Part shown: piece after piece, positions 1-64,000 of the stretch
How positions within the stretch are numbered: position 1 is the stretch's first letter
Layout: each line of letters opens with the position of its first letter
Origin: a virus
Virus record (IMG/VR): IMGVR_UViG_3300000101_000010
Reading direction: 5' to 3' (one strand)
DNA length: 64,000 nt
Position numbers and translations under genes: made by a program
Notes under the pieces: model-generated
What the model saw: the letters and a program-made list of their open reading frames with translations, nothing else
Database searches by the model: none
What the model was told of the DNA's origin: nothing

Positions 1-2
1 CA

Positions 3-1877
3 TACACAACTACATCACACACAGTTATTGCAATAGCAGACGACAGTGATGAAATTGCAATTAGTACAACAGATGGTACAAGTTGGACTTATGTTAACAC
101 AGGGTTTGGAACAGGACAAAAATTCTTAGCTTACGGTAATGGTAAGTGGATGATTGTTAAAGAAGATGGGTCTGCTATAGAAAGTATTAATGACGGACAA
201 ACTTGGCAGACAGCAAATAATGTTGCTCCAGGAACTTACAATGTTACAGGATTTGCATTTGGTAATGGAAGATTTGTAGCATCAGTACAACCAAATGGAA
301 CAGCTACATTTGTATTTGATCCATCAACTACAATGATTAATTCAGTTTCAGGTACAACTAGTGCTACGTTTGGATTAAACAGTACATTCTATATTAGCTT
401 TACAGATAAAGACACAGGGCCAACAAACTCAAGTTGGTTACTAGTATCAGACGGAAACTATATTGGTACAAGAGTATTTGGACTTGCTTATCAAGACGGA
501 TTGTTTATGGCAATTAGTGTACAAGGTGATATTTTATATGGTGACGGCGGACATGTTTGGAACAGCAAACCAGCTATACCTTTATTGAACGCACAAAACT
601 ACAGACAAAAAATTCACCCAATGACATTAACATCAAGTACTGGTACTGCTGGTCCAAGATTTATTATTACACCGTCAAGTGCAACAGCAAACTTAGCGGC
701 AATTAAATTTGGTGCTAAAGCAAAAATGAGAGCGTTCCCTGTAACAACAGGACGTATTGATGCATTTACAATGTCAGATACAGGTAGTGGTTATGACGCA
801 GGTATTCCACCACAAATACATGTACATGATACACAAAAAACAACAGAAGTAACGTACCAAGTTAGAGTTAAAAATAGAGTGTTAGGACAACCTAACTTTA
901 CTAACAGAGGTGCGGCTTATACTAAATTTAATGCTGTAACAATTACTGGTGATGGTTATGCAGACTTATTCCAAATTGGCGGCGAGATAATTGTTAGCGG
1001 TCTATCATTACTTCCAAGTCCAGGTGATAACTTTAGAGTTGACGGTATTAACGATGTAATTTATAAAGTTGGTACAGCTACAGTATTAGAAGGTGCTATA
1101 CCAAATGCTACAGCGAAACTTACAATTAGTCCTAACATGGGCGTACAAGAATCGCCAAATCATGCTGTATCAGCAAACATTAGACAGAACTACAGTCAGG
1201 TACGATTAACATTCCATGATTTCCTAGACATTGGTACAGGTAACTTTGGAGATACTGCTTATCCGTTATTATATACAGACGGCTTTGGTAACATTAATCC
1301 ACCAGAGCAATCATACGAAGCTCAAGAGTATAACGGAGGTAGAGTATTCTACGCTTCTACAGACCAAGATGGTAACTTTAGAGTAGGTGAATTATTTAAA
1401 GTTGAACAGAGTACAGGTATTGTTACTATTAATGCTTCACAGTTTGACTTAAAAGGACTTGACGAACTTAGACTTGGAGCGTTTATACTTGGTGGAACAA
1501 ACGCTGTAATTAGAGAATTCTCAAAAGAACAAACATTTGTTGCTAACAGTAACAATATTGTACCAACACAAAAAGCTATTGCGGCGTATTTACAAGGTAG
1601 AATTAGTGGTGGTGGATCAAACGTTGCGGCAAACGCAGTTACAGCAGGTACTTGTAAATTTAGTGACTTGAATCACATATCAAATACAGGTGGAATAGCT
1701 ATTAATATTCCAGTAACCATGCACATGACTAAGATACCAAGTGGTATGATGATGGCACAAGCGTTCTTTAACGGTAATATGGATACTATGATGCTTACAG
1801 AAAGTCAAGATGACTTTGAAGGAAGCGATGGATTCTATGACGGTGGCGAAAATGGCTACGGTCCGGGAGGATTATAA
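3..1877 (+). CDS. Tail fibre / baseplate-associated protein, 5'-truncated
   Basis: Frame is open from base 3 to the ORF-track Met at 150, so the gene starts upstream. Beta-propeller-like xAYGNGxW/xAFGNGRF repeats. C-terminal module (YSQVRLTFHDFLDIGTG...STDQDGNFRVG...IVPTQKAI) is paralogous to that of the next gene. Confidence 0.75.
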   Translation, partial: YTTTSHTVIAIADDSDEIAISTTDGTSWTYVNTGFGTGQKFLAYGNGKWMIVKEDGSAIESINDGQTWQTANNVAPGTYNVTGFAFGNGRFVASVQPNGTATFVFDPSTTMINSVSGTTSATFGLNSTFYISFTDKDTGPTNSSWLLVSDGNYIGTRVFGLAYQDGLFMAISVQGDILYGDGGHVWNSKPAIPLLNAQNYRQKIHPMTLTSSTGTAGPRFIITPSSATANLAAIKFGAKAKMRAFPVTTGRIDAFTMSDTGSGYDAGIPPQIHVHDTQKTTEVTYQVRVKNRVLGQPNFTNRGAAYTKFNAVTITGDGYADLFQIGGEIIVSGLSLLPSPGDNFRVDGINDVIYKVGTATVLEGAIPNATAKLTISPNMGVQESPNHAVSANIRQNYSQVRLTFHDFLDIGTGNFGDTAYPLLYTDGFGNINPPEQSYEAQEYNGGRVFYASTDQDGNFRVGELFKVEQSTGIVTINASQFDLKGLDELRLGAFILGGTNAVIREFSKEQTFVANSNNIVPTQKAIAAYLQGRISGGGSNVAANAVTAGTCKFSDLNHISNTGGIAINIPVTMHMTKIPSGMMMAQAFFNGNMDTMMLTESQDDFEGSDGFYDGGENGYGPGGL

Positions 1878-1885
1878 ACCAAATG

Positions 1886-1892
1886 ATAAATA
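1886..1892 (+). promoter_or_regulatory. T4-type late promoter box (ATAAATA)
   Basis: NTAAATA in the short intergenic gap before the 2037-aa fibre gene; the motif recurs before most structural genes. Confidence 0.65.
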
Positions 1893-1919
1893 CATATAAC
1901 ACGCATGTAGGAAGAAAAA

Positions 1920-4900
1920 ATGGCAGAATTTAAACTAGGTAGAATTAGATTTGTATGGAAAGGTGCTTGGACAACCGGTACTGTATACTATAAAGACGAT
2001 ATCGTAAGACAAGGCGGAAGAACTTACTTCTGTAATGTAGGACACACAGCGTCTGCAGATTTTGCCACTGACGAATCAGCTAAATGGCAACTATTCACAG
2101 ATGGTGTTTCTTGGAATGGCGCCTGGACATCTAACTACTATTACAAACAAAACGACCTTATTAAATATGGTGGTTATCTTTACGTTTGTAACACAGCTCA
2201 CACTTCAGAAGTTGACGGTGCTACAGCAGGAAAATTAGAAACTGATCAAGCTAAATGGGATTTATTTGCAGAAAGTTTTGATTGGAAAAGTGACTGGACT
2301 ATTACTACAGTTTACAAAGTAAATGACATTGTTAAGTACGGTGGTAATTTATATCTTTGTAACACAGCACACACAGGTTCAAGTTCACAAGGAAGTGACA
2401 TTGATGGATTAGAAGCAGATCTTTCTAAATGGGATATTTTCTCAAAAGGAATGGACTGGAAAAGTGCATGGGCAATTAGTACAAGATATAGAACCGGCGA
2501 TACTGTTAAGTATGGCGGAAGAATGTACATTTGTAATGAAGGTCATTTATCAAATGCGGCGGTTGGAGAAGGTTTAGAATCTGATCAAACTAAGTGGGAC
2601 GTTGTACACAATGGTATTGAATACAAAACAGTACATGCAATTAATACACGATACAAAATTAATGATGTTGTTAAATTTGGTGGCGGTCTTTGGATTAACA
2701 CTCATGAACATACATCAAGTGCAACAAGTTTAACTGACGATGTTACAAGTGCAGGACACATTGTAACAATTGATACAGTTAGTGCCGCTGACACAGACAG
2801 AACAGCAGGTACATACAACGACATTACAGGAACATCAGATGGTCCAGGTACTGGACACAGATTTAATGTTACAATAGATAATCTTGGTGCGGCAACTGTA
2901 TCAGTAGTTAAAGGTGGTCAGGGACATGTAATTGGTAACACAATTTCAATTAGTCCAACAGACTTTGGCGGAACAGGAACTACACTTACGTTTAATGTTC
3001 TTACTATTGAAACAAGCACACAGTGGCAACAATTTATTCCAGGTTTAGAATTTGAGGATAGTTGGTCAGGATCAACAGCATACCAAGTAGGTGACTTTGT
3101 TACTTATGGTGGTTATTCTTATATTGCTACACAAAACAATACTAACGTTGTTCCATTTGGTAATGCGGCAACATGGGATTTATTTACAACAGGATTTAGT
3201 TTAAAAGGTGACTACAATAATGCAACTGCTTATAAAGTTGGTGATGTAGTTAGAGTTGGTGGATACACATATATTAGTATCCAAGACACAACAGGAAACA
3301 GACCACCTAACGTAACTTATTGGGACAGACTTAATGAAGGTATGTCTTGGAAAGATGCGTGGGCTAACGCAACATACTATGACTTAGGTGATGTTGTTAG
3401 AGGAATTAACAATGTTAACTCTTATATTTGTGTACAAGCACACACATCAGATCAAGTAAGTAATCAAGATAGACCAGATCAAGATGTAGCAGGTGCATAT
3501 TGGAAACTTATGTCAGGCGGTGTTGAGTCAGGTAACTTAACAACTGCTGGTGACATAGTTTACTACGGTGGATCAGGACCAACAAGATTACCAATTGGTA
3601 AAGATGGTCAAGTATTAAAAGTTAATGCGGCAGGTACTGCTCCGGAATGGGCATACTTTGGACAGTTAGATCAAGTTTACTATGTTGGTAAAAGTGGTGT
3701 TGACGGATTTGCACCAGCATATGGTGTTACAATCGATAAGCCATTCTTTTCAACAAGATGGGCATGTGAGCAAATACGTAAAGGCCCACGTAACCCAGAA
3801 GCAACATTCTTAATTGAAATGAACAAACAGTTTATTCAAGAACAAACAATGGAATTTATTACACACAGTATTGCAAATAATACTGCTCCATTTACAACTT
3901 CATTTACATATAATGCAGTTAAATGTCGTAGAGACATTGGAATTATTTTAGATGCATTACTATGGGATCTAAGACACGGCGGTAATGTAAGAATGCGTGA
4001 ATGTGCATTGTCTTATATTTCACCAGCAGGTGCAAACTATGTTGCAGGACAACAAGCAGAAACTAATGCGGCAATTAATTACGCAATGAGCTTACTGCCA
4101 AACATTATTACAAACTTAGCACCAGCAGTAAACTACGCAACATTAAACAGCGTAAGTACACCAGTTGTACAACTTACTGATGCTACTAAAACTGCTGAAC
4201 CAAACATTGCAACAACAGCTAATGCGTTGACATTATTAGTTACGGGTACAATTACAGCAGGTAATACTACTAATTTACAGAAAAAAATTAAACCAAACGT
4301 AACAGTATTTGTTAAAACAGGACAGTATAACGAAATACTTCCAATTATTGTTCCAGCAGATGTAGCAGTTGTTGGTGATGAATTACGTAGTACAGAAATT
4401 AGTGCGGCAACAGCAGGACCAACTGATGTTAACGATGCTAACCTAAGTAAAACTGCTATACTAAGAATGAAAGCAATACTTAGCGATGTTGTATTAAACA
4501 ACTCTGTTACTAAAACAGCGGCAGGTGGACACTTAACAATGGATAACTTTGGTGCCGCAGATGCAAGTAGAGCAACAGGTACATATTCAAACGTAACAGG
4601 TTCAAGTTCAGCTTCAGGTACAGTAGGAACATTTGACATTGCAGTTGATGGTACTGGCGCAGTAACAAGCGTATTAGTAGTTACAGCAGGATCAGGACAT
4701 GCAGTTAACGACACAATTACTATTGCAGATAGTGCATTAGGTAGTGGCGGCGGAGCGGCATTTACAATGGATGTTGCAACAATCAGTACAGGTAACACAC
4801 GTACACAAGATGTTAGATTACCAGCAGGTAATGCAACGGCTGTTACAACAGCTGAGTTACTATTCCAAGACATTCATGATTATATTGACTATGAAGTTAA

Positions 4901-7900
4901 CGGAACAGGAACTAAACCAACAGTTACAGGACAAGTTGGTAGAAGAACTGATGCGGCTTACACAGATACAAGAGGAAGAATTTTAGCTAACTTAGAATTT
5001 ATAGTAGATGAAGCATATGAATATATTCAAGCTACAAGTACTAAAGCATTCCAAGAAGCAAGTCCAGATGCGGCTCAACAAGCATCATGTAAAAGAGATG
5101 CAAGAGAATATGTAAAAGCAGTTCTTTGGGATTTAGAAAACTTTGGTAACTACTATTCAACACTTACAGGTAGATGGTTTAGTAACGCAGTTAGTGGTTC
5201 ACTTCTAGAAGATATGTTCTACTTAGAAAATGGTACTGGTTTAAGAAACTGTACTGTTAAAGGACTAGCAGGAGCATTAGGTGCACCAAACGTATACGGA
5301 ACTAAACGTCCAACAGCAGGAGCATTTTGTTCACTTAACCCAAGTTGGGGACCAGATGATGAAGATGCGTGGATTATTACACGTTCACCATATGTACAAA
5401 ACGTAACAACATTTGGTACAAGATGTATTGGACTTAAAGTAGACGGAGATATTCATAACGGTGGTAACGATTCGATTGTTGCTAACGACTTTACACAGGT
5501 ACTTGATGAAGGTATTGGTGCATGGGTTACTAACTTAGGAAGAGCAGAACTTGTTTCCGTGTTCTCATACTACGGACACATTGGTTATCTTGCAGAAGCA
5601 GGCGGTAAAATACGTGCTACTAACGGTAACAGTTCATACGGTGACTTTGGTACTGTAGCAGAAGGTGTTGACTTAACTGAAACAGCTATTAAAGCAACAG
5701 TAGATAACAGAAGTTTTGATGCAGTTATTGGTGCAGTTGTAACTAACAACACAGGAATTATACACCACGAATATATACATGCAGGTAGAGAATATGTACC
5801 AGCTAACACAACACTTAGTTACTCAGGAGATGGATTTGGTATTACTGGATTAACTCCAACAGTTGTAACAGGTGGTGTTATGCAGATTAGATTAACAGGT
5901 ACAACAGAAACATTTGGTGGTAAAGATTATAAAACTGCAACTAATACTCCACAAACTGGTAATACTACAAGCATTACAATTTCAAACACAGATGCTTCGT
6001 TGAGTGCGGCATACTTAGGTATGGCAGTATTCCTAGTAGGTGGTAAAGGTGCAGGGCAGTATGGTTATATTGATACATACAACGCAGGTACAAAAATTGC
6101 TACAATTAAAAAATATTCAGATAACTTAGCAGGTTGGGACGTTACAGTTAGCGGACAAGCAGTTGAAGCTGAATTAGATAATACAACACAATACAGCATT
6201 GAACCAAGAGTTACTATTAGTGCTCCTGGCAATGACGGATCAACAGCAACAGCACAAGCGATTGCTAGAGCAAAAGTTGCAGATGGTAAAATTAGTGAAG
6301 TAAGAATTATTCACCCAGGTGCTTCTTATACAGCACCTCCAACAGTAACATTTACAGATCCAAACAATACAGAAGATGCTCCATTAGAAGTATTCTTAGG
6401 TGATGGTGTACTTGCACAACCAACGTTTGCTTCAAGAGGAACAGGTTGGACAACAGCTACAGCTGAAGTTGTAGATGCAGGTTATGAAAAAGACATTACA
6501 GGAGTATCATTTACTGCTAATCCTTATGCTTACACATTGCTTACAGCTAACAAAGAATTTATTAAAGACGAAGTTATTGCTTACATTGACAATCAAATTG
6601 TAAACGCTCCTGTTGGTAGCTCATTATGGGATGCCTTTACATATGATGGTGCATCATGGGAATCAGACGTTGGCGAATATGTTGATGCACTAGCACATGA
6701 TATCAAATTTGGTGGAACTAAAGAAACAATTAGAGCCGCTAGAAGTTATTGGATTGGTGTAAACTCTACGCTACCAGGAAGACAAGGTCAAAAACTTGCG
6801 GCTTATGAGTTTATGAGAACGTTGCTAACAACTAATATTTTAGCTAACTCAGCTTACACAACTTTACAAAGTCCAGTAGTAACTACACAAACTACAAATG
6901 CTAACAACGGTGAAGCAGGTGCTATTACTTTAATGGGCGGCTTAATTGACATTGTTAACGAAGGACTAATAAACGGACTTACAAGTTTACCACAGGACGG
7001 TGGAACAGGTATATTAAATATTACTGTTACATCACATGGATTAATTGACGGAGACAAAGTGTTAATTAATACAGTTGGTGGTACAACACAAATTAACGGT
7101 AATAGATATTATGTAAAACGTATTGATGCAAATACTTTACAACTTTACTTAGATTATTTGTTACTATTTCCGGCAGTACTTACAAACGGTAGCCCATACG
7201 TTGCTAACGGTACTATTTCATACGGAGCAGGTTACAGAGATGCTAAACAAGATGGCAAATACATGCAGGTTGAAGGAATGGAATCTATTCCACAAGCTGG
7301 TGCAAACGTAGAATTTGCAAGTTTGCCAAATCAATTCTTTAAACTTGTTAGTGTTACACAATTAACTGGTAGTTCACCATACTCAGCATTACTACAAATA
7401 TCACCAAACATGGAGTTAAATGATGCTCCAACACACGGCGATAATGTTGAAATGCGAATTAGATATTCGCAATGTAGACTAACAGGACACGACTATTTGG
7501 ACATTGGTACTGGTGGATTCACTACTACTAACTATCCAGGTACTCCAACTACACCAGCTGATCCTACAGATGAAGCTGTAGAGGGTGGTGGAGGAAGAGT
7601 GTTCTTCACAAGTACAGACCAAGACGGTAACTTTAGAGTTGGCGACTTGTTTAGTGTTGAACAGGCAACTGGTATTGCAACGCTAAATGCTGATGCATTT
7701 AGTATATCAGGACTACAAGAACTACAACTTGGAGCAGTAGCACTTGGCGGTGCTGGTGCAACAGTTAACGAATTTAGTACAGATGGTACGTTTACTGCGA
7801 ACAGTGATAGTATTGTTCCTACACAGAAGGCTATTAAGACATATATTACTAGCCAAATTGGTGGAGGTGCATCAGAATTGAACGTAAATAGTGTAACTGC

Positions 7901-8033: not shown

Positions 8034-8046
8034 AAGGAGAAATAAT

Positions 8047-8367: not shown

Positions 8368-8369
8368 TG

Positions 8370-8376
8370 ATAAATA
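8370..8376 (+). promoter_or_regulatory. Late promoter box (ATAAATA)
   Basis: Intergenic motif 24 nt upstream of ATG 8401. Confidence 0.65.
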
Positions 8377-8400
8377 TAGTAATAAAAAGGAAACACTAAA

Positions 8401-8733: not shown

Positions 8734-8751
8734 GAAGAGAGGATACTAATT

Positions 8752-9492
8752 ATGGCAGACCTGAGAACACTATTAGGCGACACTATTGGAGGATCTTCGG
8801 TTCCTACAAAATTCTTCTACGTCTACAATAACAATAGAGGAATTAACAATGGTGGTTGCTGTTGTAACTGGACAGTACCAACTGGTATTGTTAACGTAAC
8901 GTTTGAGTTATGGGGAGCAGGCGCGGCAGGAGCAGGTGGTTGCTGTTGTCAGTTTAGTTCACAGAACGCAGGTGGCGGGTCATATGCGATTAGATCACAT
9001 TCAGTTGTAGCTGGATGTACATTTACAATTTGTGCGGCAGGTAATGGTGCATGTTGTGAACGTGATTGTTTAGGAATTGACGGATCAACTAGTTTTGTTA
9101 CTGGTTCAAGTATTGCAACAACGTGTGCAAGAGGTGGATGTACAGGAAGAACAAACTGTCATGCACACTATGCATATAACTGTTGCTTTGGTTGTTCAAC
9201 AATAGGTGGTGGAACGCAGGGCGATTTAAGATTAGGTCACAGTAGAGGACAACCACTACAAACGCATTATTGTCACAATCAAATGTGGGATTATGTCCCA
9301 AGTGCACCAAAGAGTAGCAACACAAGAAAAGGACGTGATTACTGCGGTAATCCAATGACTTGTTCAGGTTGCGGATGGGGTTGTGCTCAACCTTACCCAG
9401 GTGATGCTGGATATAATGGTACTGCATGTGGCGGACCGTGCTGTTGGGGCCATTGGGGCTCAGGCGGAATGGTTAAGGTGTCGTACAGTTAA
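8752..9492 (+). CDS. Cys/Gly-rich adhesin-like tail protein 1
   Basis: 25 Cys in 246 aa (manual count); WTVP...FELWGAGAAG glycine-rich domain motif; two CCC triplets; ends GGMVKVSYS. Confidence 0.65.
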   Translation: MADLRTLLGDTIGGSSVPTKFFYVYNNNRGINNGGCCCNWTVPTGIVNVTFELWGAGAAGAGGCCCQFSSQNAGGGSYAIRSHSVVAGCTFTICAAGNGACCERDCLGIDGSTSFVTGSSIATTCARGGCTGRTNCHAHYAYNCCFGCSTIGGGTQGDLRLGHSRGQPLQTHYCHNQMWDYVPSAPKSSNTRKGRDYCGNPMTCSGCGWGCAQPYPGDAGYNGTACGGPCCWGHWGSGGMVKVSYS

Positions 9493-9497
9493 TATGA

Positions 9498-9504
9498 CTA
9501 AATA
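9498..9504 (+). promoter_or_regulatory. Late promoter box (CTAAATA)
   Basis: Intergenic motif 17 nt upstream of ATG 9522. Confidence 0.55.
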
Positions 9505-9521
9505 CAAACGAAGGAAACAAA

Positions 9522-10214
9522 ATGGCTGAAATTACAAAAAACTTTACATATGATATCCCCAATGAATATTTGAGTCAATCAAATAGTGATGGGGACACAG
9601 CAACAGCTAGTTATACAGGACCAGAATCATTGTATATCTATGTTGATGCAACAAGCGGAAAAAATACACTATCACAAAATGCTCCAGATGAGGAGTTTAA
9701 CTACAATCCAACTACTGATACAACACCAGAAGGTGAAAGATTAGTTACTTTAGATTGTGCAGGCGAAGATACTTTAATGTGTGCTATCTTTCTTCCACAC
9801 ACAGTAACGATAACGCAAAGTGATGTTGTAACAAATTTACCAGAAGATTACGGAACATACTCCACTAAGTGGCCACCATATCCAGATCATGCTTACGAAA
9901 GAGACTTATGTACTCATGACGCTGATTCGAATAACTGGACACTAACTTGGAAGCAACCGTGGCAAACATGGGAAACATTAACACAATTAAGAAACGATAG
10001 ATTAGATTCAACAGATCATAAAGTATCAGCAGATTCACCTGATAGCGTTAAGAATCCTTGGATTGCATTTAGACAAAAACTTAGAGAATTACCAGTTACG
10101 TACAAGCGTGGCGCGGCAGATGAAATTCCAGCACATATGGTTAAGTTCCCAGAAGAACCAACTGTAGGCGGATATGCTGAAGCACCAGCTGAAGATGGCG
10201 TAGGAATAGGTTAA
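9522..10214 (+). CDS. Tail fibre assembly chaperone (Tfa-like C-terminal domain) 1
   Basis: WETLTQLRNDRLDSTD...WIAFRQKLRELP...FPEEP matches the phage tail-assembly chaperone pattern. Confidence 0.7.
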   Translation: MAEITKNFTYDIPNEYLSQSNSDGDTATASYTGPESLYIYVDATSGKNTLSQNAPDEEFNYNPTTDTTPEGERLVTLDCAGEDTLMCAIFLPHTVTITQSDVVTNLPEDYGTYSTKWPPYPDHAYERDLCTHDADSNNWTLTWKQPWQTWETLTQLRNDRLDSTDHKVSADSPDSVKNPWIAFRQKLRELPVTYKRGAADEIPAHMVKFPEEPTVGGYAEAPAEDGVGIG

Positions 10215-10226
10215 GGAGAACAATAA

Positions 10227-10997
10227 ATGTCTGCATTAAGATCACTATTACAACTTGGAACAGATTCCGGAGCAAAGCCTCTGAGAACGATTTATGTTTA
10301 CCACAGTTCATTTGATAATACTCGTAACAGTAACCCAGGTTGCTGTTGTGCATGGACACCTAGTGCAGATGTAAACTGGGCGGCTTTTGAAACATGGGGA
10401 GCAGGCGGAGACGGTGGCGGAGGCTGTTGTTGTATGTCAGGATTTCCAGGCGGAGCAGGATCGTACGGTAGAAAAATTGCTGAAATTACACCAGGCGCAA
10501 CATTTACATTATGTGCAGGAGCGGCAGGTTGCTGTAGACCAGTAATGGGCTGTACAGGATGTGGTAGTTATGCATGTTCAGGTAACGGTTGTAAATCAGG
10601 AGGCTACTTTTGCTTATGTTCATCAGGTGGTGGATATGGTTGTGCAACTTGTGGTTTTGGTACTGCATGGGGCGGACATTGTGGATGTCCAAACAGAATG
10701 TGTGGTTGTGTAAAAGGCGCAGACTTTAGTATGTGCGGTATGAATGGCGGTGGAGCAGGAACATCTATGTGTTCTAGTTCATCATGGGAAAACATGACAT
10801 CAGCACCATACGGCGGACAAAGTGCTAGAATGTCAAGAGATAATTGTTATAAAACACACGGTAGAGATGCAGATGGTCCAGCTGACTTCCCAGGAGGCGG
10901 CGGCGGAACACTACATACTCACAATGGTACTTGTTACTGCGGTGGTCCAGGAGCTGGTGGATTAGTAGTAGTTTACTATCAATCGGAAGTAGGATAA
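10227..10997 (+). CDS. Cys/Gly-rich adhesin-like tail protein 2
   Basis: 26 Cys in 256 aa; FETWGAGGDGGGGCCC; C-terminal GGPGAGGLVVVYY; paralog of 8752. Confidence 0.65.
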   Translation: MSALRSLLQLGTDSGAKPLRTIYVYHSSFDNTRNSNPGCCCAWTPSADVNWAAFETWGAGGDGGGGCCCMSGFPGGAGSYGRKIAEITPGATFTLCAGAAGCCRPVMGCTGCGSYACSGNGCKSGGYFCLCSSGGGYGCATCGFGTAWGGHCGCPNRMCGCVKGADFSMCGMNGGGAGTSMCSSSSWENMTSAPYGGQSARMSRDNCYKTHGRDADGPADFPGGGGGTLHTHNGTCYCGGPGAGGLVVVYYQSEVG

Positions 10998-11009
10998 GGA
11001 GAGTAATTT

Positions 11010-11816
11010 ATGTCAAATTTAAGAGATTATATTCCAGGATACGATGTAGGTGTTTCAAGTCCAACTGCGTTTACAGTTAGTTACGCTTGGAACTCAGATC
11101 ACAACGAAGCGTGGCCAGCACAAGCATACGGTGTACCACCAGAATCAAGATATTATTGTAACAACAACGGCGGTAAATGTTGTAACTGGACTGTTCCATC
11201 AAGTGCTACTTTTGCAGTATTTGAAATGTGGGGCGGCGGTTCATCAGCTACAGGCGGATGTTGCTGTATGCAAGGTTATCCAGCAGACTCAGGCGGATAT
11301 GCTATTAAATCTACTAACGTAACAGGCGGTGATTCATTCACAATTTGTGCAGGTAGATCAGGATGTTGTTTATATGCAGGTAATAACTATGCAGGACATA
11401 ACAGTTTTGTTATGGGAACTCCAACAGGCGGCTCATGTTTTTGTGCTGTAGCTTGTGGAGGTTACTGTAGTAACTGTACACATTGTCATGGTTTCTTTAG
11501 CTGTTACGGTTGCTGTATGAACTGTTATAACTGTCAAATTCAACCTAATAACGTTGACTTTGGTATTGCAAGTATGACAGGTTCTTCACAAAGATCACAG
11601 CATTGCGGAGATAGAGGATTAGAATTAACACCAACTGCTCCAATGGCACAGTCAGGACCTAAAATGGGACCAAACGGTTGCTGTACAAGAGGCGGCGAGT
11701 GTGGTGGATTTGGTTCATGGCCAGGTGGCGCAGGAGAATCAGGTAGAGCATATGGCGGCGGTTGCTGTTGTGGTTCACCAGGTGCTGAAGGCGCAGTATA
11801 CGTGGTGTATTATTAA
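11010..11816 (+). CDS. Cys/Gly-rich adhesin-like tail protein 3
   Basis: 27 Cys in 268 aa; NWTVP...FEMWGGGSSATGGCCC; C-terminal PGAEGAVYVVYY; paralog of 8752 and 10227. Confidence 0.65.
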   Translation: MSNLRDYIPGYDVGVSSPTAFTVSYAWNSDHNEAWPAQAYGVPPESRYYCNNNGGKCCNWTVPSSATFAVFEMWGGGSSATGGCCCMQGYPADSGGYAIKSTNVTGGDSFTICAGRSGCCLYAGNNYAGHNSFVMGTPTGGSCFCAVACGGYCSNCTHCHGFFSCYGCCMNCYNCQIQPNNVDFGIASMTGSSQRSQHCGDRGLELTPTAPMAQSGPKMGPNGCCTRGGECGGFGSWPGGAGESGRAYGGGCCCGSPGAEGAVYVVYY

Positions 11817-11838
11817 AGGTAACAAATAGGAAAATAGA

Positions 11839-13209
11839 ATGATAGATCCAAATGCAACAGATAGAGTAGTAGAAGTAAACGTAGACTTCTCGTATGATAT
11901 GCCAGATGCATATCTGTATCAAACTGCCGACTTAGGTAAAGTGGGTACTTGGACTTATGAAGGTCCTAGAGAGATGTGGGTATTTTTACGTAAAAGAGAT
12001 AACAAGCGTACAGGTGAAGTTAAATTCAGCTACCAAGTTGAAGATGATTTTGTACCTGCGGCAAGTGAATACATGGTTAAAGTTAACTGTGAAGAAAATC
12101 CTTTACTTTGCGAATTAATGGAAACTGATCAAGACACACTATTTTTAGAAGGCAGAGAACAAATAAGTACTACACTTCCAATAAATGATTGGGAAGGTAA
12201 TCCATTTGTACATATTGAGCCTAAAGTTCCGACACCAGATCACACATACGATAGAGATGAAATTGAATACAATCCAACTGCACAAGAATGGGTTACACCT
12301 TTTCCATTTATTAAGCCACACACAGATTGGGAAGCAATTAAAAAAGTACGTTGGTCTAGACTAAACGCTAGTGACGGACACGTATCAGAAGATATGCCAG
12401 CTAGTTTAATTACTGAATGGCAAGATTATAGAATAGCATTAAGAAACTTACCAGCTACATATGGTGCGGCATGGTCAGTAGCTATTGCAACAGCAGGAAC
12501 AGGATATGCAGTAGGCGACAACTTTAACGTTGACGCAAGTGTATTTGGTTTTTCAAGTGCAGATGTAGGTACATTAGACGATTTAAGTCAACCAATGGGT
12601 AAGAGACCCGGATTTGATTTTGAAGCGGCAACTAGTGGACTAGATGATACAGCTCTTGTTAACGAAAATGATTCATTAGATGTAAACATTATTGTTACAG
12701 CAGTTGATTCAGATGGTGCAATTACAGGTGTTAGAACACGTAACGCATTTAATGCAAGACATATTGCAGAAGCACGTACACTTAACGCAGTAGCAACTAC
12801 AGCAACTACAAGCGGTGGTTCAGGTGCAACATTTAATTTAAGTAAAGTAGTTAGAATTGACCCTTGGAAAGTAAGATTTCCACAGAGTCCAAACGCAAAA
12901 CGCCCAGGTGTGTATGGCGAAAGAGATCAATTTCCAGGACAGATTGGCCGTTATTTAAGCGAAGCTGATCGTAACAATCCTGCAGATGGTTGGTTAATGG
13001 AACACACATATCACCCTGCAACGGGACACTTTGTTCCACCAGAAATAGGCGGCAACTATATGGCTTATGATTTAGAAAGATTGAATCTAAGTACAGACGG
13101 TACACCGTACGATGATGGCGTAGCAGACGGGCTTCCAACACCTCCTACAGACTCAAGAGGCAATACACGTATTGCTGGGACTGTAACAGCCAGAAAACAA
13201 TCAAGCTAA
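11839..13209 (+). CDS. Tail fibre assembly chaperone 2 with inserted fibre-like domain
   Basis: N-terminus paralogous to 9522 (FSYDMPDAYL vs FTYDIPNEYL; PDHTYDRD vs PDHAYERD); WEAIKKVR...WQDYRIALRNLP chaperone motif. Confidence 0.65.
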   Translation: MIDPNATDRVVEVNVDFSYDMPDAYLYQTADLGKVGTWTYEGPREMWVFLRKRDNKRTGEVKFSYQVEDDFVPAASEYMVKVNCEENPLLCELMETDQDTLFLEGREQISTTLPINDWEGNPFVHIEPKVPTPDHTYDRDEIEYNPTAQEWVTPFPFIKPHTDWEAIKKVRWSRLNASDGHVSEDMPASLITEWQDYRIALRNLPATYGAAWSVAIATAGTGYAVGDNFNVDASVFGFSSADVGTLDDLSQPMGKRPGFDFEAATSGLDDTALVNENDSLDVNIIVTAVDSDGAITGVRTRNAFNARHIAEARTLNAVATTATTSGGSGATFNLSKVVRIDPWKVRFPQSPNAKRPGVYGERDQFPGQIGRYLSEADRNNPADGWLMEHTYHPATGHFVPPEIGGNYMAYDLERLNLSTDGTPYDDGVADGLPTPPTDSRGNTRIAGTVTARKQSS

Positions 13210-15102: not shown

Positions 15103-16903
15103 AAAATCAGTATGGATCGCTGGAATTGCTAGAGGACATAACGGCGGAGTATGTTTATTAAAAGATGGTGAAATTGTTTTTTCAATTGAAGAAGAACGCC
15201 TAACAAGACAAAAATACGATGGCGGCCCATATGCAAGTATGATTAAGATACTTGAATATACAGACAAGCTAGACTTTTTAGTTGTTGCACATACACAAAA
15301 TTTAGAACAAACTGCTGGCAAAGTAGACTTTAGTGGCGATGATGTTTATACAGGACTTGCACGTAAGCTAGGACTTATTAAACGTGAAGCATACCAAGGA
15401 GGAAATCATCCTCAAGTAATTGACATGTCAAACATACACCACAAGTTACATGCCGCTTGTGCTTTTTATCGTTCAGGATTTGAAGATGCTTGTGCAGTTA
15501 TTGTTGATGGTGCTGGAACATTTATTACATTAGATATCGGCGGAGTTCCTACTACTGTTTGGGAAACAGAAAGTATTTACGATTGCAACTATCCAGATAA
15601 CTTTAAAACATTATACAAACACATTGGTGCTAATGGACCTGTTATGGGTGCATGGATGCCTGAATTTTCAAGTGAAATGTATGACGAAGATAAAGATCAA
15701 ACACACGAATTAGTTATTTCAGAAAATGCTGGCATTGTTAAAGCGTATGAAGCAGTTACAGAGTACTGTGGATTTAGTTTTATTGAAGCAGGTAAAACTA
15801 TGGGATTATTTCCATACGGTAAAGCAGACAGTCCGGCACCTAAAATATTTAGACATGATACAATGACATCACAAGCAGACAGACATGTTATTGTTCCAAC
15901 GTATCCTAATGGTGCTCATGTTAATTACAACATGCACACATACTTAACTAATCATGGCGATGAAGAAAATCAAGATGTAACATATTTAGAAAACAGACGT
16001 AACATGGCTTATCAAATACAAACAGAAAGCCAAACAGAAGTTGCAAATCTAATTCGTAAAGCAGTTGCAATGTCAGGTAAGAATAAAGTAGTTATTAGTG
16101 GCGGATACGGACTTAATTGTGTTGCTAACTATCATTACTTAGAAGAATTAAAAGACGAAGGCATTGAAATTTATGTTGAACCAGTAAGTAACGATGCAGG
16201 TACAGCAATGGGTGGTGCAATGTTAATGCATAGACGTTTAACTAAAAGTAACAAACGTCAAGAACAGCAAGAAACACTATATGAAGGACCAGCTTACAGT
16301 TATACAGATGAAGAAATTAATGCAGTTGTAGAAAAGTATAATGCAACAGTTGAAGATGCAGATAATACTAAAGCTGTAGACTTACTTGCTGATAGAAAGA
16401 TTGTTACATTATTCCAAGGACGTAGTGAAAACGGTCCACGTGCATTAGGTAATAGAACTATTATGTATGATCCAAGTGATCCTAATGGTAAAGATTATGT
16501 AAACAAAGTTAAACGTAGAGAATACTTCCGTCCGTTTGCAGGTAGTATACTAGAAGAAGATGTACATGAATGGTTTGACTTACGTGGAATGAAAAGTTCA
16601 CCAACAATGATGTATGCTGTAAACTGTCAACCTGGTATTGCTGAAAAGATTCCAAGTATTATTCACGTAGATGGCACATGTAGAATTCAAACAGTTAATA
16701 GAGATCAAAACAAACATTACTATGACATTATCAAAGCGTTCAAAGAACGTACTGGTACTAGTATAATTTTCAATACTAGTTTTAACCTAGGTGGCGAACC
16801 GTTAGTTGAAACACTAGATGATGCTGTACGTACACTACGTAATAGTGATATTGAATATCTTTATTTGCCAGAATACAATAAGCTAATTACAGTAAACAAT
16901 TAA
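15092..16903 (+). CDS. O-carbamoyltransferase, NodU/CmcH/TobZ family
   Basis: EEERLTRQK, HHKLHAACAFY, VDGAG, SGGYGLNCVAN, DAGTAMG, GPRALGNR, KRREYFRPFA, HVDGTCRIQTV, NTSFNLGGEP. Confidence 0.93.
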   Translation: MPSKKSVWIAGIARGHNGGVCLLKDGEIVFSIEEERLTRQKYDGGPYASMIKILEYTDKLDFLVVAHTQNLEQTAGKVDFSGDDVYTGLARKLGLIKREAYQGGNHPQVIDMSNIHHKLHAACAFYRSGFEDACAVIVDGAGTFITLDIGGVPTTVWETESIYDCNYPDNFKTLYKHIGANGPVMGAWMPEFSSEMYDEDKDQTHELVISENAGIVKAYEAVTEYCGFSFIEAGKTMGLFPYGKADSPAPKIFRHDTMTSQADRHVIVPTYPNGAHVNYNMHTYLTNHGDEENQDVTYLENRRNMAYQIQTESQTEVANLIRKAVAMSGKNKVVISGGYGLNCVANYHYLEELKDEGIEIYVEPVSNDAGTAMGGAMLMHRRLTKSNKRQEQQETLYEGPAYSYTDEEINAVVEKYNATVEDADNTKAVDLLADRKIVTLFQGRSENGPRALGNRTIMYDPSDPNGKDYVNKVKRREYFRPFAGSILEEDVHEWFDLRGMKSSPTMMYAVNCQPGIAEKIPSIIHVDGTCRIQTVNRDQNKHYYDIIKAFKERTGTSIIFNTSFNLGGEPLVETLDDAVRTLRNSDIEYLYLPEYNKLITVNN

Positions 16904-16907
16904 AGTC

Positions 16908-17537
16908 ATGGAAGATGACTTTATCCAATACTTTGATATAAAGATTCACTGGACCAAAGACACAGACGGCTGTGGCAACACAATGGTTGATGACTTTATT
17001 GATGCAACACAAGCAATAAGCGAAGATAAAAAATTTAACAATGTACTAGAATGGTGTAGTGGACCAGGCTTTTGGGGGTTTGGATTACTTGCAACAGGTA
17101 TAGCAAACAAAGTTACATTGGCAGACATCTATGAGCCAACTCAGCTTCCTGTATTACAAACAATAAAAGAAAATAACTTACAAGATACTGCACAATTTTT
17201 TCTAAGTGACAACTTTACAAATATTCCGCAACAAAAATTTGACCTAATTGTTGCTAATCCACCTCACTTTAACATGGATCCGTATGTAGCACACTATGAC
17301 GATCCAAGGAAATATAAAGATTTAGACTGGTCTATACATAAAAATTTCTTTAACAATGTTAACAATTACCTAACCGACGATGGAATTATTGTACTTGCTG
17401 AAAATGTATGGGGATCAAATCCTGACACATTCCAAGACATGATTACTGATAACAATTTACAAATTACACATCATTTTGTAAGCAAACAATACCCTTTAGA
17501 TATGTGGTATTTAGGTATTACACGCTTACACCACTAG
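16908..17537 (+). CDS. Class I SAM methyltransferase (HemK/PrmC-like NPPx motif)
   Basis: VLEWCSGPG motif I and DLIVANPPHF motif IV. Confidence 0.8.
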   Translation: MEDDFIQYFDIKIHWTKDTDGCGNTMVDDFIDATQAISEDKKFNNVLEWCSGPGFWGFGLLATGIANKVTLADIYEPTQLPVLQTIKENNLQDTAQFFLSDNFTNIPQQKFDLIVANPPHFNMDPYVAHYDDPRKYKDLDWSIHKNFFNNVNNYLTDDGIIVLAENVWGSNPDTFQDMITDNNLQITHHFVSKQYPLDMWYLGITRLHH

Positions 17538-17560
17538 CAATCGTAACAGTCCATAATTAG

Positions 17561-44906: not shown

Positions 44907-46496
44907 ATGGCAACAAAGAGTTTAGATGGTGTCTTAACAAAGAAGGCACACACAAGAGATACATATACCGAGGCGCAGATTGACGACCTTAAGCAATGCA
45001 TGGATCCAAAAGATGGATACTTGTACTTTGCTAAGAAGTTTGCATTTATTCAGCACCCTGTAAAAGGTAAATTATTATTTGATCCATATGGATATCAAGT
45101 ACGTTTACTACAGAGTTATCACGACTTCCGTTTTAACATTAATATGTTGCCAAGACAAACTGGTAAGACAACTACTGCCGCAATTTACTTGTGTTGGTAT
45201 GCAATGTTTCATCCAGATCAAACAATACTAATTGCCGCACACAAATATACAGGTGCCCAAGAAATTATGCAACGTATTAGATACGTGTATGAAATGTGTT
45301 CTGATCATATTAGAGCAGGTGTTACTAACTACAACAAGGGTAGCATGGAATTTGAAAACGGATCACGTATTGTTAGTGCTACTACAACAGGAAACACAGG
45401 ACGTGGTATGTCCATATCATTACTATACTGTGATGAGTTTGCATTTGTTAATCCTAACATTGCAGAAGAATTTTGGACATCAATATCTCCTACACTAGCA
45501 ACAGGTGGTCGTGCTATTATTACAAGTACACCTAATAGTGATGAAGATACATTTGCTGTTATTTGGAAAGAGTCAGAAGATAAATTTGACGAACACGGTA
45601 ACGAAGCATCTATTGGTAAGAATGGCTTTCATGGTTTTACATGTAGTTGGGACGAACATCCTGACAGAGATGAAGAATGGAGGAAGAATGAAATTGGGCG
45701 TATTGGTGAAGAAAAGTTTAGACGTGAGTATGGTTGTGAATTCTTAATCTATGATGAAACACTTATTAATAGTATTAAGTTAGCATCAATGGAAGGTACA
45801 GATCCAATACTTAATATGGGTCAAACACGTTGGTACGGCAAACCAACAGGTGATAACAACTATGTTGTTGCCCTTGATCCTAGTATGGGTACTGGAGGCG
45901 ACTTTGCCGCAATACAAGTATTTGAAGTACCAAGCTATAAGCAAATAGCAGAATGGAGACATAACGAAACTGCTATACCAGGACAGATTAGAGTTTTAAA
46001 AGATATATGTGATTATATTAAAGAGCAATGTAATAACAACGGATCAAACATATATTGGAGTGTAGAGAACAACAGTATTGGAGAAGGTGCATTAATTGTT
46101 ATTAGAGACCTTGGAGAAGAGAATATACCAGGGCTACTTACAAGTGAACCTATGCGTAAAGGACATGTGCGTAAGTTCCGTAAAGGATTTAACACAACAC
46201 ACAGTACTAAAATTAGTGCTTGTAGTCGATTAAAAACTATGATCGAAAACGATAAACTACAAGTAAACAGCAAAGTATTACTATCAGAGCTTAAAGGATT
46301 TGTAGCAAGTGGTAGTAGTTATAAAGCAAAACCCGGAGAAACAGACGATTTAGTTAGTGCAACATTGCTAAGTATGCGTATAATCGCAGTATTAAAAGAC
46401 TGGGATCCAAGAGTATACGAATCGTTCAATCAGGCAGAATCAAGCGAAGATTACGAACCGCCCATGCCTATATTCGTTTCGACTAATATGAGATAA
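44907..46496 (+). CDS. terL: Terminase large subunit (gp17-like)
   Basis: Walker A PRQTGKTT, Walker B LLYCDEFAF, TSTPN, nuclease VALDPSMG.GGD and DDLV. Confidence 0.95.
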   Translation: MATKSLDGVLTKKAHTRDTYTEAQIDDLKQCMDPKDGYLYFAKKFAFIQHPVKGKLLFDPYGYQVRLLQSYHDFRFNINMLPRQTGKTTTAAIYLCWYAMFHPDQTILIAAHKYTGAQEIMQRIRYVYEMCSDHIRAGVTNYNKGSMEFENGSRIVSATTTGNTGRGMSISLLYCDEFAFVNPNIAEEFWTSISPTLATGGRAIITSTPNSDEDTFAVIWKESEDKFDEHGNEASIGKNGFHGFTCSWDEHPDRDEEWRKNEIGRIGEEKFRREYGCEFLIYDETLINSIKLASMEGTDPILNMGQTRWYGKPTGDNNYVVALDPSMGTGGDFAAIQVFEVPSYKQIAEWRHNETAIPGQIRVLKDICDYIKEQCNNNGSNIYWSVENNSIGEGALIVIRDLGEENIPGLLTSEPMRKGHVRKFRKGFNTTHSTKISACSRLKTMIENDKLQVNSKVLLSELKGFVASGSSYKAKPGETDDLVSATLLSMRIIAVLKDWDPRVYESFNQAESSEDYEPPMPIFVSTNMR

Positions 46497-57721: not shown

Positions 57722-57732
57722 TCTAGTATAAT
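57704..57732 (+). promoter_or_regulatory. Sigma70-type promoter (TTGACT-17-TATAAT)
   Basis: Near-consensus; ATG 57739 lies 6 nt after the -10 box. Confidence 0.78.
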
Positions 57733-57738
57733 ACATAC

Positions 57739-60506: not shown

Positions 60507-60527
60507 TATGAAAACAGAGGATTATAA

Positions 60528-61034: not shown

Positions 61035-61737
61035 CAGTATAACAGTAGACGTATATACAAACCAACAATACGCTTACGATCAATGTAAGCCGCAGTTGGC
61101 AAAGAAGTATATACCCGAATGGTGGAAAAGTTTACCAGCAAGTAGACCTACGCACCAAGAGTTCTATGACGACTTGCCGATAAGTTCAATGAAACAATGT
61201 CCTGCTATTAATGATATATTAAAGGCAGGAATTATTTTCCCTAGTTGGTGTGAACTACATATGCGTGTAGGTATTGGAGGAGAGAAAGAAGTAAGAGTCT
61301 TTCCTGACTTTATTCCTGCATTGCCACACGACGAACGTGACTTTGATTTTCACAAGCCTGGACTTGCACATGTTAAGTTAGGCTCACCGTGGTTTATGAA
61401 AGAAACTACAGGTGTAAAATGGGTATGGATCAAACCTGATTGGCACACAAAGAATCCATTAGCATACTGGGGCGTACCTGGTATCACAGAGTATAAACAT
61501 CAACATAGTATCTTAAATAACATTATGGTTCCATACGGTAGTGAAGTTAAAATTGAAGTTGGCGAACCTTGGTTACAACTAGTACCAATGAGTGACAAAC
61601 CAATAAAACTTAACGTCCACTTAACAGACAACCAAACTATGCAGAATTTAAATACAGTTAATATATCCTCCGTAGGAAGTTATATGAAATCGATACGTAA
61701 TGTTGGGAAGCAAAGGAAATTAGATGAAAACAATTAG
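61018..61737 (+). CDS. Hypothetical protein (PEWWK...KQCP...P.W type)
   Basis: Beta-rich ORF resembling those in large aquatic phage accessory regions; start at 61018 or 61003. Confidence 0.55.
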   Translation: MGFLSNSITVDVYTNQQYAYDQCKPQLAKKYIPEWWKSLPASRPTHQEFYDDLPISSMKQCPAINDILKAGIIFPSWCELHMRVGIGGEKEVRVFPDFIPALPHDERDFDFHKPGLAHVKLGSPWFMKETTGVKWVWIKPDWHTKNPLAYWGVPGITEYKHQHSILNNIMVPYGSEVKIEVGEPWLQLVPMSDKPIKLNVHLTDNQTMQNLNTVNISSVGSYMKSIRNVGKQRKLDENN

Positions 61738-62290
61738 TGAAGAATACGCTCGCCAGTTAGCACAACTACACAGCGAGAAAGCATCTTTCGGTGACGCTAA
61801 AGGATTAAAGGCTATCGAAAAATGGATTAAAGAATTTAAACCTCAGTCTATTTTAGACTATGGTTGCGGCAAAGGTGGAGTTGTATTAGCACTCAAAGAA
61901 TCGTATCCAGAGATTAGTGCAATTGGTTGGGATCCAGGGATGCCAGACTTTAATATTCCCGATAACAAGAAGCCTGCTGATATGCTTATTAGTACAGACG
62001 TACTAGAACATATTGAGCCTTTCTTTTTAGATGATGTACTAAAAGATATTCACGAACTGTTTAACAAAAATGCATTTCTTATTATTGCTACTAGCCCAGC
62101 TAAAAAGTTTTTACCAGACGGACGTAATGCACATTTAATTGTAGAGAATCCGGGTTGGTGGAAAGAAAGAATTGAAAAATGTATGCCAGGTGTAAAAATT
62201 GTACATCACGAGTTCTTTGAAAAGACAAGAACAGATAAGCGTGGCGGCGTACATGAGAACAACAAATATATTGTAGTGTTGGAGAAATAG
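61724..62290 (+). CDS. Class I SAM methyltransferase
   Basis: ILDYGCGKG, GWDPG, DMLISTDVLEHIEP. Confidence 0.85.
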   Translation: MKTISEEYARQLAQLHSEKASFGDAKGLKAIEKWIKEFKPQSILDYGCGKGGVVLALKESYPEISAIGWDPGMPDFNIPDNKKPADMLISTDVLEHIEPFFLDDVLKDIHELFNKNAFLIIATSPAKKFLPDGRNAHLIVENPGWWKERIEKCMPGVKIVHHEFFEKTRTDKRGGVHENNKYIVVLEK

Positions 62291-62291
62291 T

Positions 62292-63011
62292 ATGAGCTTT
62301 ACTAATTTAATTACAGAAGCTATTGATTCAGTATACGATGATATCAAAGCAAACAAGACTCCTACTGTATGTGAGATGGGCAACCAGCGTTTAAAAAATA
62401 ATAAGTCACGTGCTAAAATTTTTAATGCACGTGGTATTCATACACATGCTAACACTACTAAAGAATACTTTCAAGCCTTAGGCTTTGGAAGATATCTTGC
62501 TATCGATGTTAATACAGAGAAAGATGCTGTTGCAATGGATCTTAATTTAGATTGCAAACAAGCATATAACTTTACAGAACAGTTTGACCTAGTAACTAAT
62601 AACGGCACAGGCGAACACGTATTCAATCAGTACACAGTATTTAAAAACATACACGACATGACTAAGGTTGGTGGATACATGATCCATGTACTTCCTTTTT
62701 ATCGTTGGGTTGATCACGGCTTTTATAGCTTTCATCCTAATTTGTTTTTCTGCCTAGCACACCAAAATGATTATGAGATGCATGGCGTATGGATTGGTAC
62801 TAGTGACGGACATCACATTGAGAAGCTAGGACAAAAGTTATCACGTGACAAAGGTTACAGAGGTAAGTTTAAATTAGATACATGGGAAAGAGATCCTATG
62901 GTTGTTGCTATTATGAAACGTAAGACTGATGCAGAATTTGAGATGCCACAGCAACATTTATATGCAGGTGATAATATATCTAGCGATGAGATTGCGAACC
63001 GTTATAAATGA
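62292..63011 (+). CDS. SAM-methyltransferase-like protein
   Basis: CEMGNQ, IDVN...DLN, FDLVTNNGTGEHVFN, GGYMIHVLP...DHGFY. Confidence 0.6.
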   Translation: MSFTNLITEAIDSVYDDIKANKTPTVCEMGNQRLKNNKSRAKIFNARGIHTHANTTKEYFQALGFGRYLAIDVNTEKDAVAMDLNLDCKQAYNFTEQFDLVTNNGTGEHVFNQYTVFKNIHDMTKVGGYMIHVLPFYRWVDHGFYSFHPNLFFCLAHQNDYEMHGVWIGTSDGHHIEKLGQKLSRDKGYRGKFKLDTWERDPMVVAIMKRKTDAEFEMPQQHLYAGDNISSDEIANRYK

Positions 63012-63778
63012 ACCAGTATAGTGTCCTCCAAAACTTTAAGCCAAGTGACTTAAGGTTGAGCCCGTTTCCATATATCGTTATTGATGAAGTCCTACCATGG
63101 GACTTGTACAATAAGCTAGAAGCAGAATACCCAGAACAGTACATGACCAAAGGCGAAACACATGGCTTTGGTACTGCACGTTACGTTGATCATGACTTCG
63201 ATACTTACGCAACAGTAAGTCAAGCATGGCAAGAATTTGCCGCATATTCAACTAGCAGAGAATTTAAAAACGAAGTAATAAGAGCATTTCGCACAGGACT
63301 TGAAGCACACTATCCACCAGGATCGTTTTGTCCAGAAGGATTATATACCAAGTATATGCGTAGTGATGTTGCTCCACGTAGAGCTCCTAAGAGCGGATCA
63401 ATTAGAATGGAAATGCAGTTTGTATTAAATGCAATAGACAATATACAAATTAGAACTCCGCATGTTGATCAATCAAAAGAATTGTTTGCAGGTTTGTTTT
63501 ACATGAAGAAGGCAGATGACACAGGCACAGATGGTGGTCTAAATGTTTATAGAAACACAGCAGGTAAGCAATGGCGCAGAGTAACAGGTCGTGAAGCAGT
63601 TGCAGAAGATATTGAAGTTGTAGAACGTGTTCCATATAAAGCAAACACTATGGTTATGTTTTTAAACACAGTAGATAGTTTACACGGAGTTGAACCTCGT
63701 GACAATCCAAATACTATTAGACGTTATGTTAATATAGACGGACACGTACAAGAGAAATTATTTAAGTTCGTTGATTAG
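63008..63778 (+). CDS. 2OG-Fe(II) oxygenase
   Basis: PHVD (HxD), GLFYM...GG.L, SLHGV...RRYVN. Confidence 0.8.
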   Translation: MNQYSVLQNFKPSDLRLSPFPYIVIDEVLPWDLYNKLEAEYPEQYMTKGETHGFGTARYVDHDFDTYATVSQAWQEFAAYSTSREFKNEVIRAFRTGLEAHYPPGSFCPEGLYTKYMRSDVAPRRAPKSGSIRMEMQFVLNAIDNIQIRTPHVDQSKELFAGLFYMKKADDTGTDGGLNVYRNTAGKQWRRVTGREAVAEDIEVVERVPYKANTMVMFLNTVDSLHGVEPRDNPNTIRRYVNIDGHVQEKLFKFVD

Positions 63779-63787
63779 GAGATGAAT

Positions 63788-64000
63788 ATGAAAGCAGGAA
63801 AAGTTTGGGGACAAACTGAATTAATACATGCAAACGGTGTACTAGAGTTTCATCGCATTGAATATAAAGCAGGATTCAAATGTAGTGAACATGCACACGA
63901 ATATAAATGGAACGGATTCTTTGTTGAATCGGGCAAGATGATTGTTCGAGTTTGGCAAGATGATCAAGGACTAGTTGATGAAACTATTCTTGAAGCAGGA
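63788..64000 (+). CDS. Cupin, 3'-truncated (not in the ORF track)
   Basis: SD AGGAG, then MKAGKVWGQTELIHANGVLEFHRIEYKAGFKCSEHAHEYKWNGFFVESG..., open to the window end; KxWG and HxH cupin motifs. Confidence 0.75.
   Translation, partial: MKAGKVWGQTELIHANGVLEFHRIEYKAGFKCSEHAHEYKWNGFFVESGKMIVRVWQDDQGLVDETILEAG

Follow-up and report, generated by a model that had tools for sequence, protein, structure and literature searches.

Elimination of restriction sites from the genomes of non-temperate double-stranded DNA (dsDNA) phages is a known pattern (Rusinov et al., 2018, PMC6286503), in which an orthodox type II word is completely removed by synonymous change, in a lineage-specific manner and for several palindromes at once. 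The DNA considered here, 64,000 nucleotides of the IMG/VR virus record IMGVR_UViG_3300000101_000010 (hereafter the window, meaning the whole stretch that was analysed), shares these features in its treatment of GCWGC, that is, GCAGC and GCTGC, neither of which it contains. The GCWGC purge itself is therefore a known anti-restriction strategy and not a new phenomenon. The window differs from the described cases in belonging to an uncultured jumbo phage of ~335 kb, and in its sparing of other purged words next to a GG/CC step. The word lost from it is the very recognition sequence of TseI (G^CWGC, PMC3643589) and likewise of the M.ApeKI system (PMC8557920), so that a first-pass annotation made from the letters of the window alone was right to call it a TseI/ApeKI-type restriction-modification (R-M) word. 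It is the word of the BbvI system as well, and none of these systems has been linked to the host of this phage. For the sparing at GG/CC steps, the closest likenesses are DpdA-dependent 7-deazaguanine modification, Mom and the short-motif methylases of chloroviruses, all of which would protect sites in a manner that depends on their neighbours; unlike in those systems, no TGT/DpdA, C5/N4/N6-methylase or ThyA-type hydroxylase gene was found on the phage contigs searched.

The first-pass annotation had claimed total avoidance of GCWGC after a scan by eye. An exact count over both strands gives zero for GCAGC and zero for GCTGC, with no isolated site that the eye had missed, in a sequence where the corresponding 4-mers are plentiful (GCAG 330, CAGC 210, GCTG 148, CTGC 106). 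A maximum-order Markov model expects 78.2 sites, which bears out the tens that had been anticipated and lies far from the observed count (z=-8.8); no 5-mer of the window is more strongly depleted than the GCAGC/GCTGC pair. The codon-preserving shuffle suggested in the same annotation was built on the 53 called open reading frames (ORFs; 95% coding) by permuting codons within each gene, and it yields 86.8±4.4 sites (range 75-99 over 300 shuffles, z=-20) against the observed zero. By the same null, GCSGC is present 121 times (GCGGC 102, GCCGC 19) against 30.6 expected (z=+20.6), and this four-fold excess is the compensating spelling for the lost GCWGC.

Positions 1..64000, both strands: region free of GCAGC and GCTGC, by exact count, Markov model and synonymous shuffle.
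Positions 696..700, plus strand: example of GCGGC, an Ala-Ala pair written as GCG-GCN (further copies at 912, 979, 1581 and elsewhere).

GCWGC has been removed by synonymous recoding, chiefly by exchange of the central W for G or C. The distortion of Ala-Ala spelling pointed out earlier turns out to be complete: ahead of codons beginning with GC, alanine is written GCG 73 times and GCC 18 times (91 of 91) and never GCA or GCT, the two codons which make up 93% of the Ala codons in all other contexts. The reported lack of TGC-TGC is equally real, as the Cys-Cys pairs are spelled TGC-TGT (9), TGT-TGT (9) or TGT-TGC (2) in all 20 instances. Before AGC or TGC, the choice between NGC and NGT falls on NGT in 33 of 33 codons, glutamine in the context G|CAR|C is CAA in 19 of 19, and neither CAG nor CTG occurs as a codon between a preceding G and a following C. 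Ala-Ala pairs themselves are only a little rarer than expected (91 vs 112). Where G005, a relative that does not avoid the word, has GCWGC and the encoded amino acids are unchanged (15 orthologous positions), the window carries GCGGC seven times, GCCGC seven times and GTAGT once.

The Pfam profile of the window is that of a T4-like myovirus, with a T4-type large terminase, a tail sheath and a gp15-like sheath stabiliser, and with further matches to a gp32-like protein, UvsX/RecA, a helicase and a dNMP kinase. Several sugar-nucleotide/glycosyl enzymes, a carbamoyltransferase and 2-oxoglutarate (2OG)-Fe(II) oxygenases are also encoded, again by Pfam match. The large terminase served as the marker for gathering and placing relatives:

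Positions 44907..46496, plus strand: large terminase (TerL), with Terminase_6N and Terminase_6C domains.

This TerL is nearest to that of Pseudomonas phage PA5oct (53% identity) and of other jumbo phages, for which reason a cyanophage identity, suggested by the first Pfam matches, was dropped; the 'moraphages' (PMC12619734) are a different lineage. From gene content and relatives, then, the window is part of a T4-like marine jumbo myovirus genome of about 335-350 kb, a size estimated from a relative on a 335,231-bp contig and from the 53% completeness assigned by CheckV to a 186-kb relative, and it represents about one fifth of that genome. Whole contigs were compared for five members of the group, namely the window, G002 (IMGVR_UViG_3300020173_000943, 186,342 bases, the contig rated by CheckV), G005, G006 (IMGVR_UViG_3300022934_000005, 113 kb, TerL identity 85%) and G004:C57, the 335,231-bp contig, which was binned into a Red Sea metagenome-assembled genome (MAG). 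G004:C57 (PBPT01000016), which has no terminal repeat, and the 153-kb G004:C77 (PBPT01000082) are two strain variants of one jumbo phage, and both sit in a 'Candidatus Neomarinimicrobiota' MAG that is used as a GTDB species representative.

More than 600 relatives of the window are present in IMG/VR. Among the window and the best 80 of these relatives (TerL identity 76-100%, from many independent metagenomes), the observed/expected ratio for GCWGC is bimodal, with zero sites in 42 sequences, low values in 7, intermediate values in 3 and normal values in 29. In the TerL tree, a clade of 29 sequences that includes the window is zero throughout, a second clade, with 16 members, has only zero or low values, and a third of 36 is normal except for three sporadic zeros and one low value. 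The trait requires at least five changes on this tree, and none of 500 label shuffles was equally clustered. Freshwater relatives have normal counts. Sister lineages without the GCWGC pressure keep normal site numbers; the trait is lineage-specific. This distribution bears on the possibility that the purge has no cause at the DNA level, and reflects instead a codon-pair or mRNA-structure constraint, a mutational bias, or an artefact of sequencing or assembly. Strand symmetry alone does not speak against a constraint on the sense strand, hence on the mRNA, since for GCAGC/GCTGC a lack on one strand is indistinguishable from a lack on the other. However, GCA-GCN is used without constraint in relatives that encode the same proteins (G005 has a normal 242 of 250 expected GCWGC), the zero recurs in contigs from many independent metagenomes, side by side with normal relatives, the words purged together with GCWGC are classical restriction palindromes, and mutation bias cannot hold a count of 0/204 such as that of G002. 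We regard explanations of this kind as very improbable, and the agreement of many independent metagenomes, together with the co-occurrence of normal relatives, excludes the artefact among them.

The purge is genome-wide, extending well beyond the window, and is still being maintained. In G002, GCWGC is found 0 times against 204 expected over 186 kb, and in G006 0 times against 130 expected over 113 kb. Positions 110,790-173,756 of G002 are syntenic with the window at a nucleotide identity of about 86% (84-92%), and the aligned stretches differ by 7,649 substitutions in 61,538 aligned positions (~12% divergence). Twenty-two of these substitutions hit positions one step from GCWGC, and the overall substitution spectrum predicts 9.7 creations of the word; the word was created nowhere (P about 4e-8), and one seeming creation in the comparison must be an effect of an alignment gap, as G002 has no GCWGC. 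Selection against GCWGC is therefore ongoing and not a relic, and the word was lost by selection, not by drift or mutation bias.

GCWGC is not the only word affected, and the further words differ from lineage to lineage. The window and G002 have also purged AAGCTT (0/12 and 3/29, respectively), GCTAGC, GTGCAC and CASTG. G004:C57 is depleted in GCWGC (35/405) and GTGCAC (2/63), with normal AAGCTT (151/154); G005 is low in GTGCAC (2/17); and G006 is additionally free of AGCT (0/269), CAGCTG and AAGCTT having been lost along with it. In all, at least 8 type II words per genome are heavily purged in this group. A patchwork of this sort, made up of classical type II palindromes, would be expected from varied R-M repertoires of the hosts, and it matches the site elimination described for non-temperate dsDNA phages (PMC6286503). 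Two further words of the window deviate from the synonymous shuffles: AATT is strongly underrepresented (535 vs 691, z=-10) and TTAA overrepresented (632 vs 561, z=+6).

We consider it likely, on these grounds, that the GCWGC purge is classical restriction-site avoidance under a TseI/ApeKI-type or BbvI-type enzyme of the host. In this scenario, the DNA of a virulent T4-like jumbo myovirus would be exposed at GCWGC to an endonuclease of the infected bacteria, either palindromic and of the TseI/ApeKI type (G^CWGC) or type IIS and of the BbvI type (GCAGC), and newly arising sites continue to be removed. The phage appears to have no GCWGC methylase, and the absence of sites would then be its only protection. 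The purges of GCGC, CGCG, GTGCAC, GCATGC, AAGCTT, GCTAGC and CASTG would reflect the varied R-M repertoire of the host population, and a GG/CC step across the edge of a site makes copies of these other words tolerable, whereas in this lineage it would not stop the enzyme that acts at GCWGC.

The last part of this scenario is based on a rule obeyed by the copies that survive:

Positions 2119..2122, no strand: a surviving GCGC, in the context gGCGCc; all 25 of the 25 GCGC copies in the window are flanked (others at 4657 and 8921).
Positions 5281..5286, no strand: a surviving GTGCAC, one of three (5281, 9302, 56898), all flanked by G before or C after.

Taking a copy as flanked when the outer G or C of the site is repeated immediately outside it, as by a G before or a C after GCGC, and expectations from the synonymous shuffle, the window has 0 of 24 unflanked and 25 of 32 flanked GCGC. 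In the four relatives, unflanked GCGC stands at 0/73, 0/45, 0/135 and 0/42, with flanked copies near expectation. CGCG in the window behaves in the same way (unflanked 0/17, flanked 8/9, with copies at 8922, 17624 and 47635 among others), both surviving copies of GCATGC are flanked, and over the five genomes of the group 22 of 22 surviving GTGCAC are flanked, unflanked GTGCAC being zero in every one. The residual GCWGC of G004:C57 follows the rule too, since all 35 survivors have G before or C after (unflanked 0/321, flanked 35/101), compared with a flanked share of 26% in normal relatives as the control. In the lineage of the window, by contrast, flanked GCWGC is purged as well (0/15 in the window, 0/42 in G002 and 0/25 in G006); here GCWGC overrides the flank rule and its purge is unconditional. 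Separately, CAATTG in the window is low chiefly among its unflanked copies (9/35).

Flanking letters other than G before or C after give no rescue, and these two are equal in strength. A codon-level cause of the rule was rejected on this account, the rescue being equal on the two sides whatever the coding strand and the other letters being inert. The 6-bp word GTGCAC is rescued fully by flanks on both sides and partly by a flank on one side, and at the 4-bp words a single flank suffices, a pattern such as hemi- and full protection of the site would perhaps give. We know of no description of such sparing of purged words next to GG/CC steps, and one literature search likewise found none.

The rule is present in cultured T4-like phages of marine hosts. 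In HTVC008M, GATC is retained when flanked (83/123) and missing when unflanked (0/196), as is GANTC (43/62 and 0/198), and in KVP40 eight hexamers starting with G are found in 0 of about 202 unflanked and 48 of 105 flanked cases; its remaining GTCGAC (18), GCGCGC (9) and GCATGC (7) are all flanked. T4 has a GATC deficit only and does not show the rule. A control is provided by HTVC011P and HTVC019P, two Pelagibacter podoviruses isolated on the host strain of HTVC008M, in which GATC is purged whether flanked (0/36 and 0/32) or unflanked (0/41 and 0/52), and GANTC is likewise purged in both flank classes. As podoviruses of the same host purge both classes, the flank rule is a property of the DNA of the T4-like phage and not a flank preference of the host enzyme, with the caveat that the natural host ranges of these phages may differ.

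Among the four SAR11 phages tested, GATC and GANTC are erased in three, and TCGA also in HTVC008M and HTVC011P; the fourth, HTVC010P, retains both GATC and GANTC and lacks CTNAG, ACSGT and GTSAC instead. As GANTC is the alphaproteobacterial CcrM word, it seems that the GATC, GANTC and TCGA words are subject to restriction, or to attack that depends on methylation, in SAR11 populations.

These cultured phages also help to weigh self-avoidance, by which the phage itself would encode a GCWGC nuclease, for instance for destruction of host DNA, and would be safe from it by having no sites. The AGCT-free state of G006 would suit such a view, as would a few hypothetical ORFs (288, 195, 171, 697 and 135 aa) shared by the avoiders and absent from G005. 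No nuclease domain was found in these ORFs, however, in a comparison that covered about half of each genome, and with 8 or more purged words per genome (about 30 in KVP40) as many nucleases would be needed. Furthermore, the same words have been purged from unrelated phages grown on one laboratory host (GATC and GANTC in HTVC008M, HTVC011P and HTVC019P, and TCGA in the first two), which points to the host. We judge self-avoidance to be improbable.

The first-pass annotation had argued that the DNA is not globally shielded by hypermodification, and hence that the sugar enzymes act on proteins. The first half is right, in line with the heavy purges seen at 8 or more type II words; the second does not follow from it and is weakened by the GG/CC flank rule. 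Global hypermodification, whether by sugars on 5-hydroxymethylcytosine (hmC) or 5-hydroxycytosine (5hoC) of the T4 type or by 7-deazaguanine, was rejected, as site avoidance is heavy and genes of the ThyA family and TGT are lacking: PF00303 and PF01702 (TGT/DpdA) had no match on G002, G003, G005, G006 or G004:C57, all matches being confined to other contigs of the MAG G004. A methylase shield was rejected as well, since the cytosine methylase families PF00145 and PF01555 were without a match throughout the phage contigs of the group, the 335-kb one among them, and since the C5 methylases of the MAG G004 are encoded on contigs that do not show the word signature of the phage. Here the absence of a phage methylase or nuclease is deduced from the contigs of relatives and not from the full genome of the window. 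No C5 or N4/N6 methylase was found in HTVC008M, KVP40 or PA5oct, and a BLAST comparison for genes common to G004:C57, KVP40 and HTVC008M and absent from T4 returned only the clamp loader and PhoH. The window has one methyltransferase gene of another kind:

Positions 16908..17537, plus strand: MTS-family (NPPx) methyltransferase of 209 aa (PF05175, 2.7e-8), with a weak match to an Eco57I methylase.

The syntenic G002 has 47 bp in its place, at an alignment break spanning window positions 16903-17540. The enzyme was rejected as the cause of the purges, G002 having identical purges without the gene.

Because the flank rule and the same-host control place the rule in the phage, some local protection at the DNA level probably exists in the phage of the window. 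More tentatively, and with somewhat more doubt than confidence, we propose that T4-like marine phages, including this lineage, HTVC008M and KVP40, carry a putative context-dependent protection of G:C within GG/CC steps, through which the GCWGC enzyme breaks in the lineage of the window. A putative protector of this kind would lie outside the families searched, that is, the C5 and N4/N6 methylases for all three phages and the TGT/DpdA and ThyA families for this lineage.

A different role for modification would be that a GCWGC methylase of the host marks the phage DNA and an enzyme of the BisI kind (G5mCNGC) then attacks it, so that the phage would rid itself of the word open to methylation. BisI-family enzymes that require methylated GCNGC do exist (PMC4926085, PMC11347163), and orphan GCWGC methylases occur in aquatic bacteria (M.AbaBS3I, PMC6329791). 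On the other side, GCSGC, likewise a context in which BisI can act, is over-used four-fold where such an enzyme would be expected to select against it, two host activities would be required, and the data give no call for the scheme. We give it only a slim chance.

As to which enzyme would underlie classical avoidance, BbvI is a type IIS enzyme cutting at GCAGC 8/12 (REBASE). GCAGC being the reverse complement of GCTGC, an enzyme of this type would leave the footprint of a palindromic one of the TseI/ApeKI type, and counting cannot tell them apart. The earlier proposal of long-term selection by a host GCWGC system is supported by the recoding, the 186-kb relative, the clade structure and the other purged palindromes. 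Its further claim, that the word fingerprints the host, found no support, as GCWGC did not lead to a host.

Several observations weigh against avoidance of a host enzyme. No GCWGC enzyme has been tied to the host of the phage, which itself is not identified. [quoted passage not shown] In a SMRT methylome survey of marine prokaryotes, GCWGC methylation, as N4-methylcytosine (m4C), was present only in a Chloroflexi genome (PMC8919816), and lake Chloroflexi likewise have GCWGC methylation, by the methylase M.AbaBS3I (PMC6329791). A full GCWGC purge occurs in none of nine cultured marine phages with known hosts, namely HTVC008M, three Pelagibacter podoviruses and five cyanomyoviruses (S-PM2, Syn9, P-SSM2, P-HM1 and S-SM2). 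Avoidance of the word is absent from these five cyanomyoviruses, from HTVC008M (SAR11), KVP40 (Vibrio), PA5oct (Pseudomonas) and T4; the podovirus HTVC019P is partly depleted (13/54), the sole such case among the cultured phages tested. A TerL scan of GTDB genomes returned no host and only phage contigs mis-binned into unrelated MAGs, those of Polynucleobacter (twice), Crocinitomicaceae, Neomarinimicrobiota, an archaeon and a spirochaete.

Presence and absence of genes gives one hint of a difference in hosts between avoiders and non-avoiders:

Positions 8752..13209, plus strand: cassette of Cys-rich fibre-tip and chaperone genes, scored for presence or absence by tblastn.

The cassette is common to the avoiders G002, G006 and G004:C57 and has no tblastn match in the non-avoider G005. 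This distribution would fit a different host range, weakly, as a pattern over four genomes only. One of its Cys-rich fibre-tip proteins has a weak match, a 46%-identical stretch, at 232536-232910 of Prochlorococcus phage P-SSM2, with no match in S-PM2, Syn9, P-HM1 or S-SM2, and another has no tblastn match among cultured phages.

What is new in these observations is, first, the presence in one molecule of an unconditional purge of GCWGC beside flank-conditional purges of GCGC, CGCG and GTGCAC, and, second, the clade structure of the GCWGC trait in an abundant group of jumbo phages, together with the control by phages of the same host. The GCWGC purge tells apart those clades of this highly abundant marine jumbo phage, as yet uncultured, that meet a GCWGC-cutting host, and it shows that the DNA of this phage is accessible to type II enzymes. 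If it is due to a true chemical mark, the flank rule would represent a form of phage DNA protection not described so far, which would be present in the cultured phages KVP40 and HTVC008M as well, and it bears on the targets of the sugar, carbamoyl and 2OG-oxygenase genes that these phages carry.

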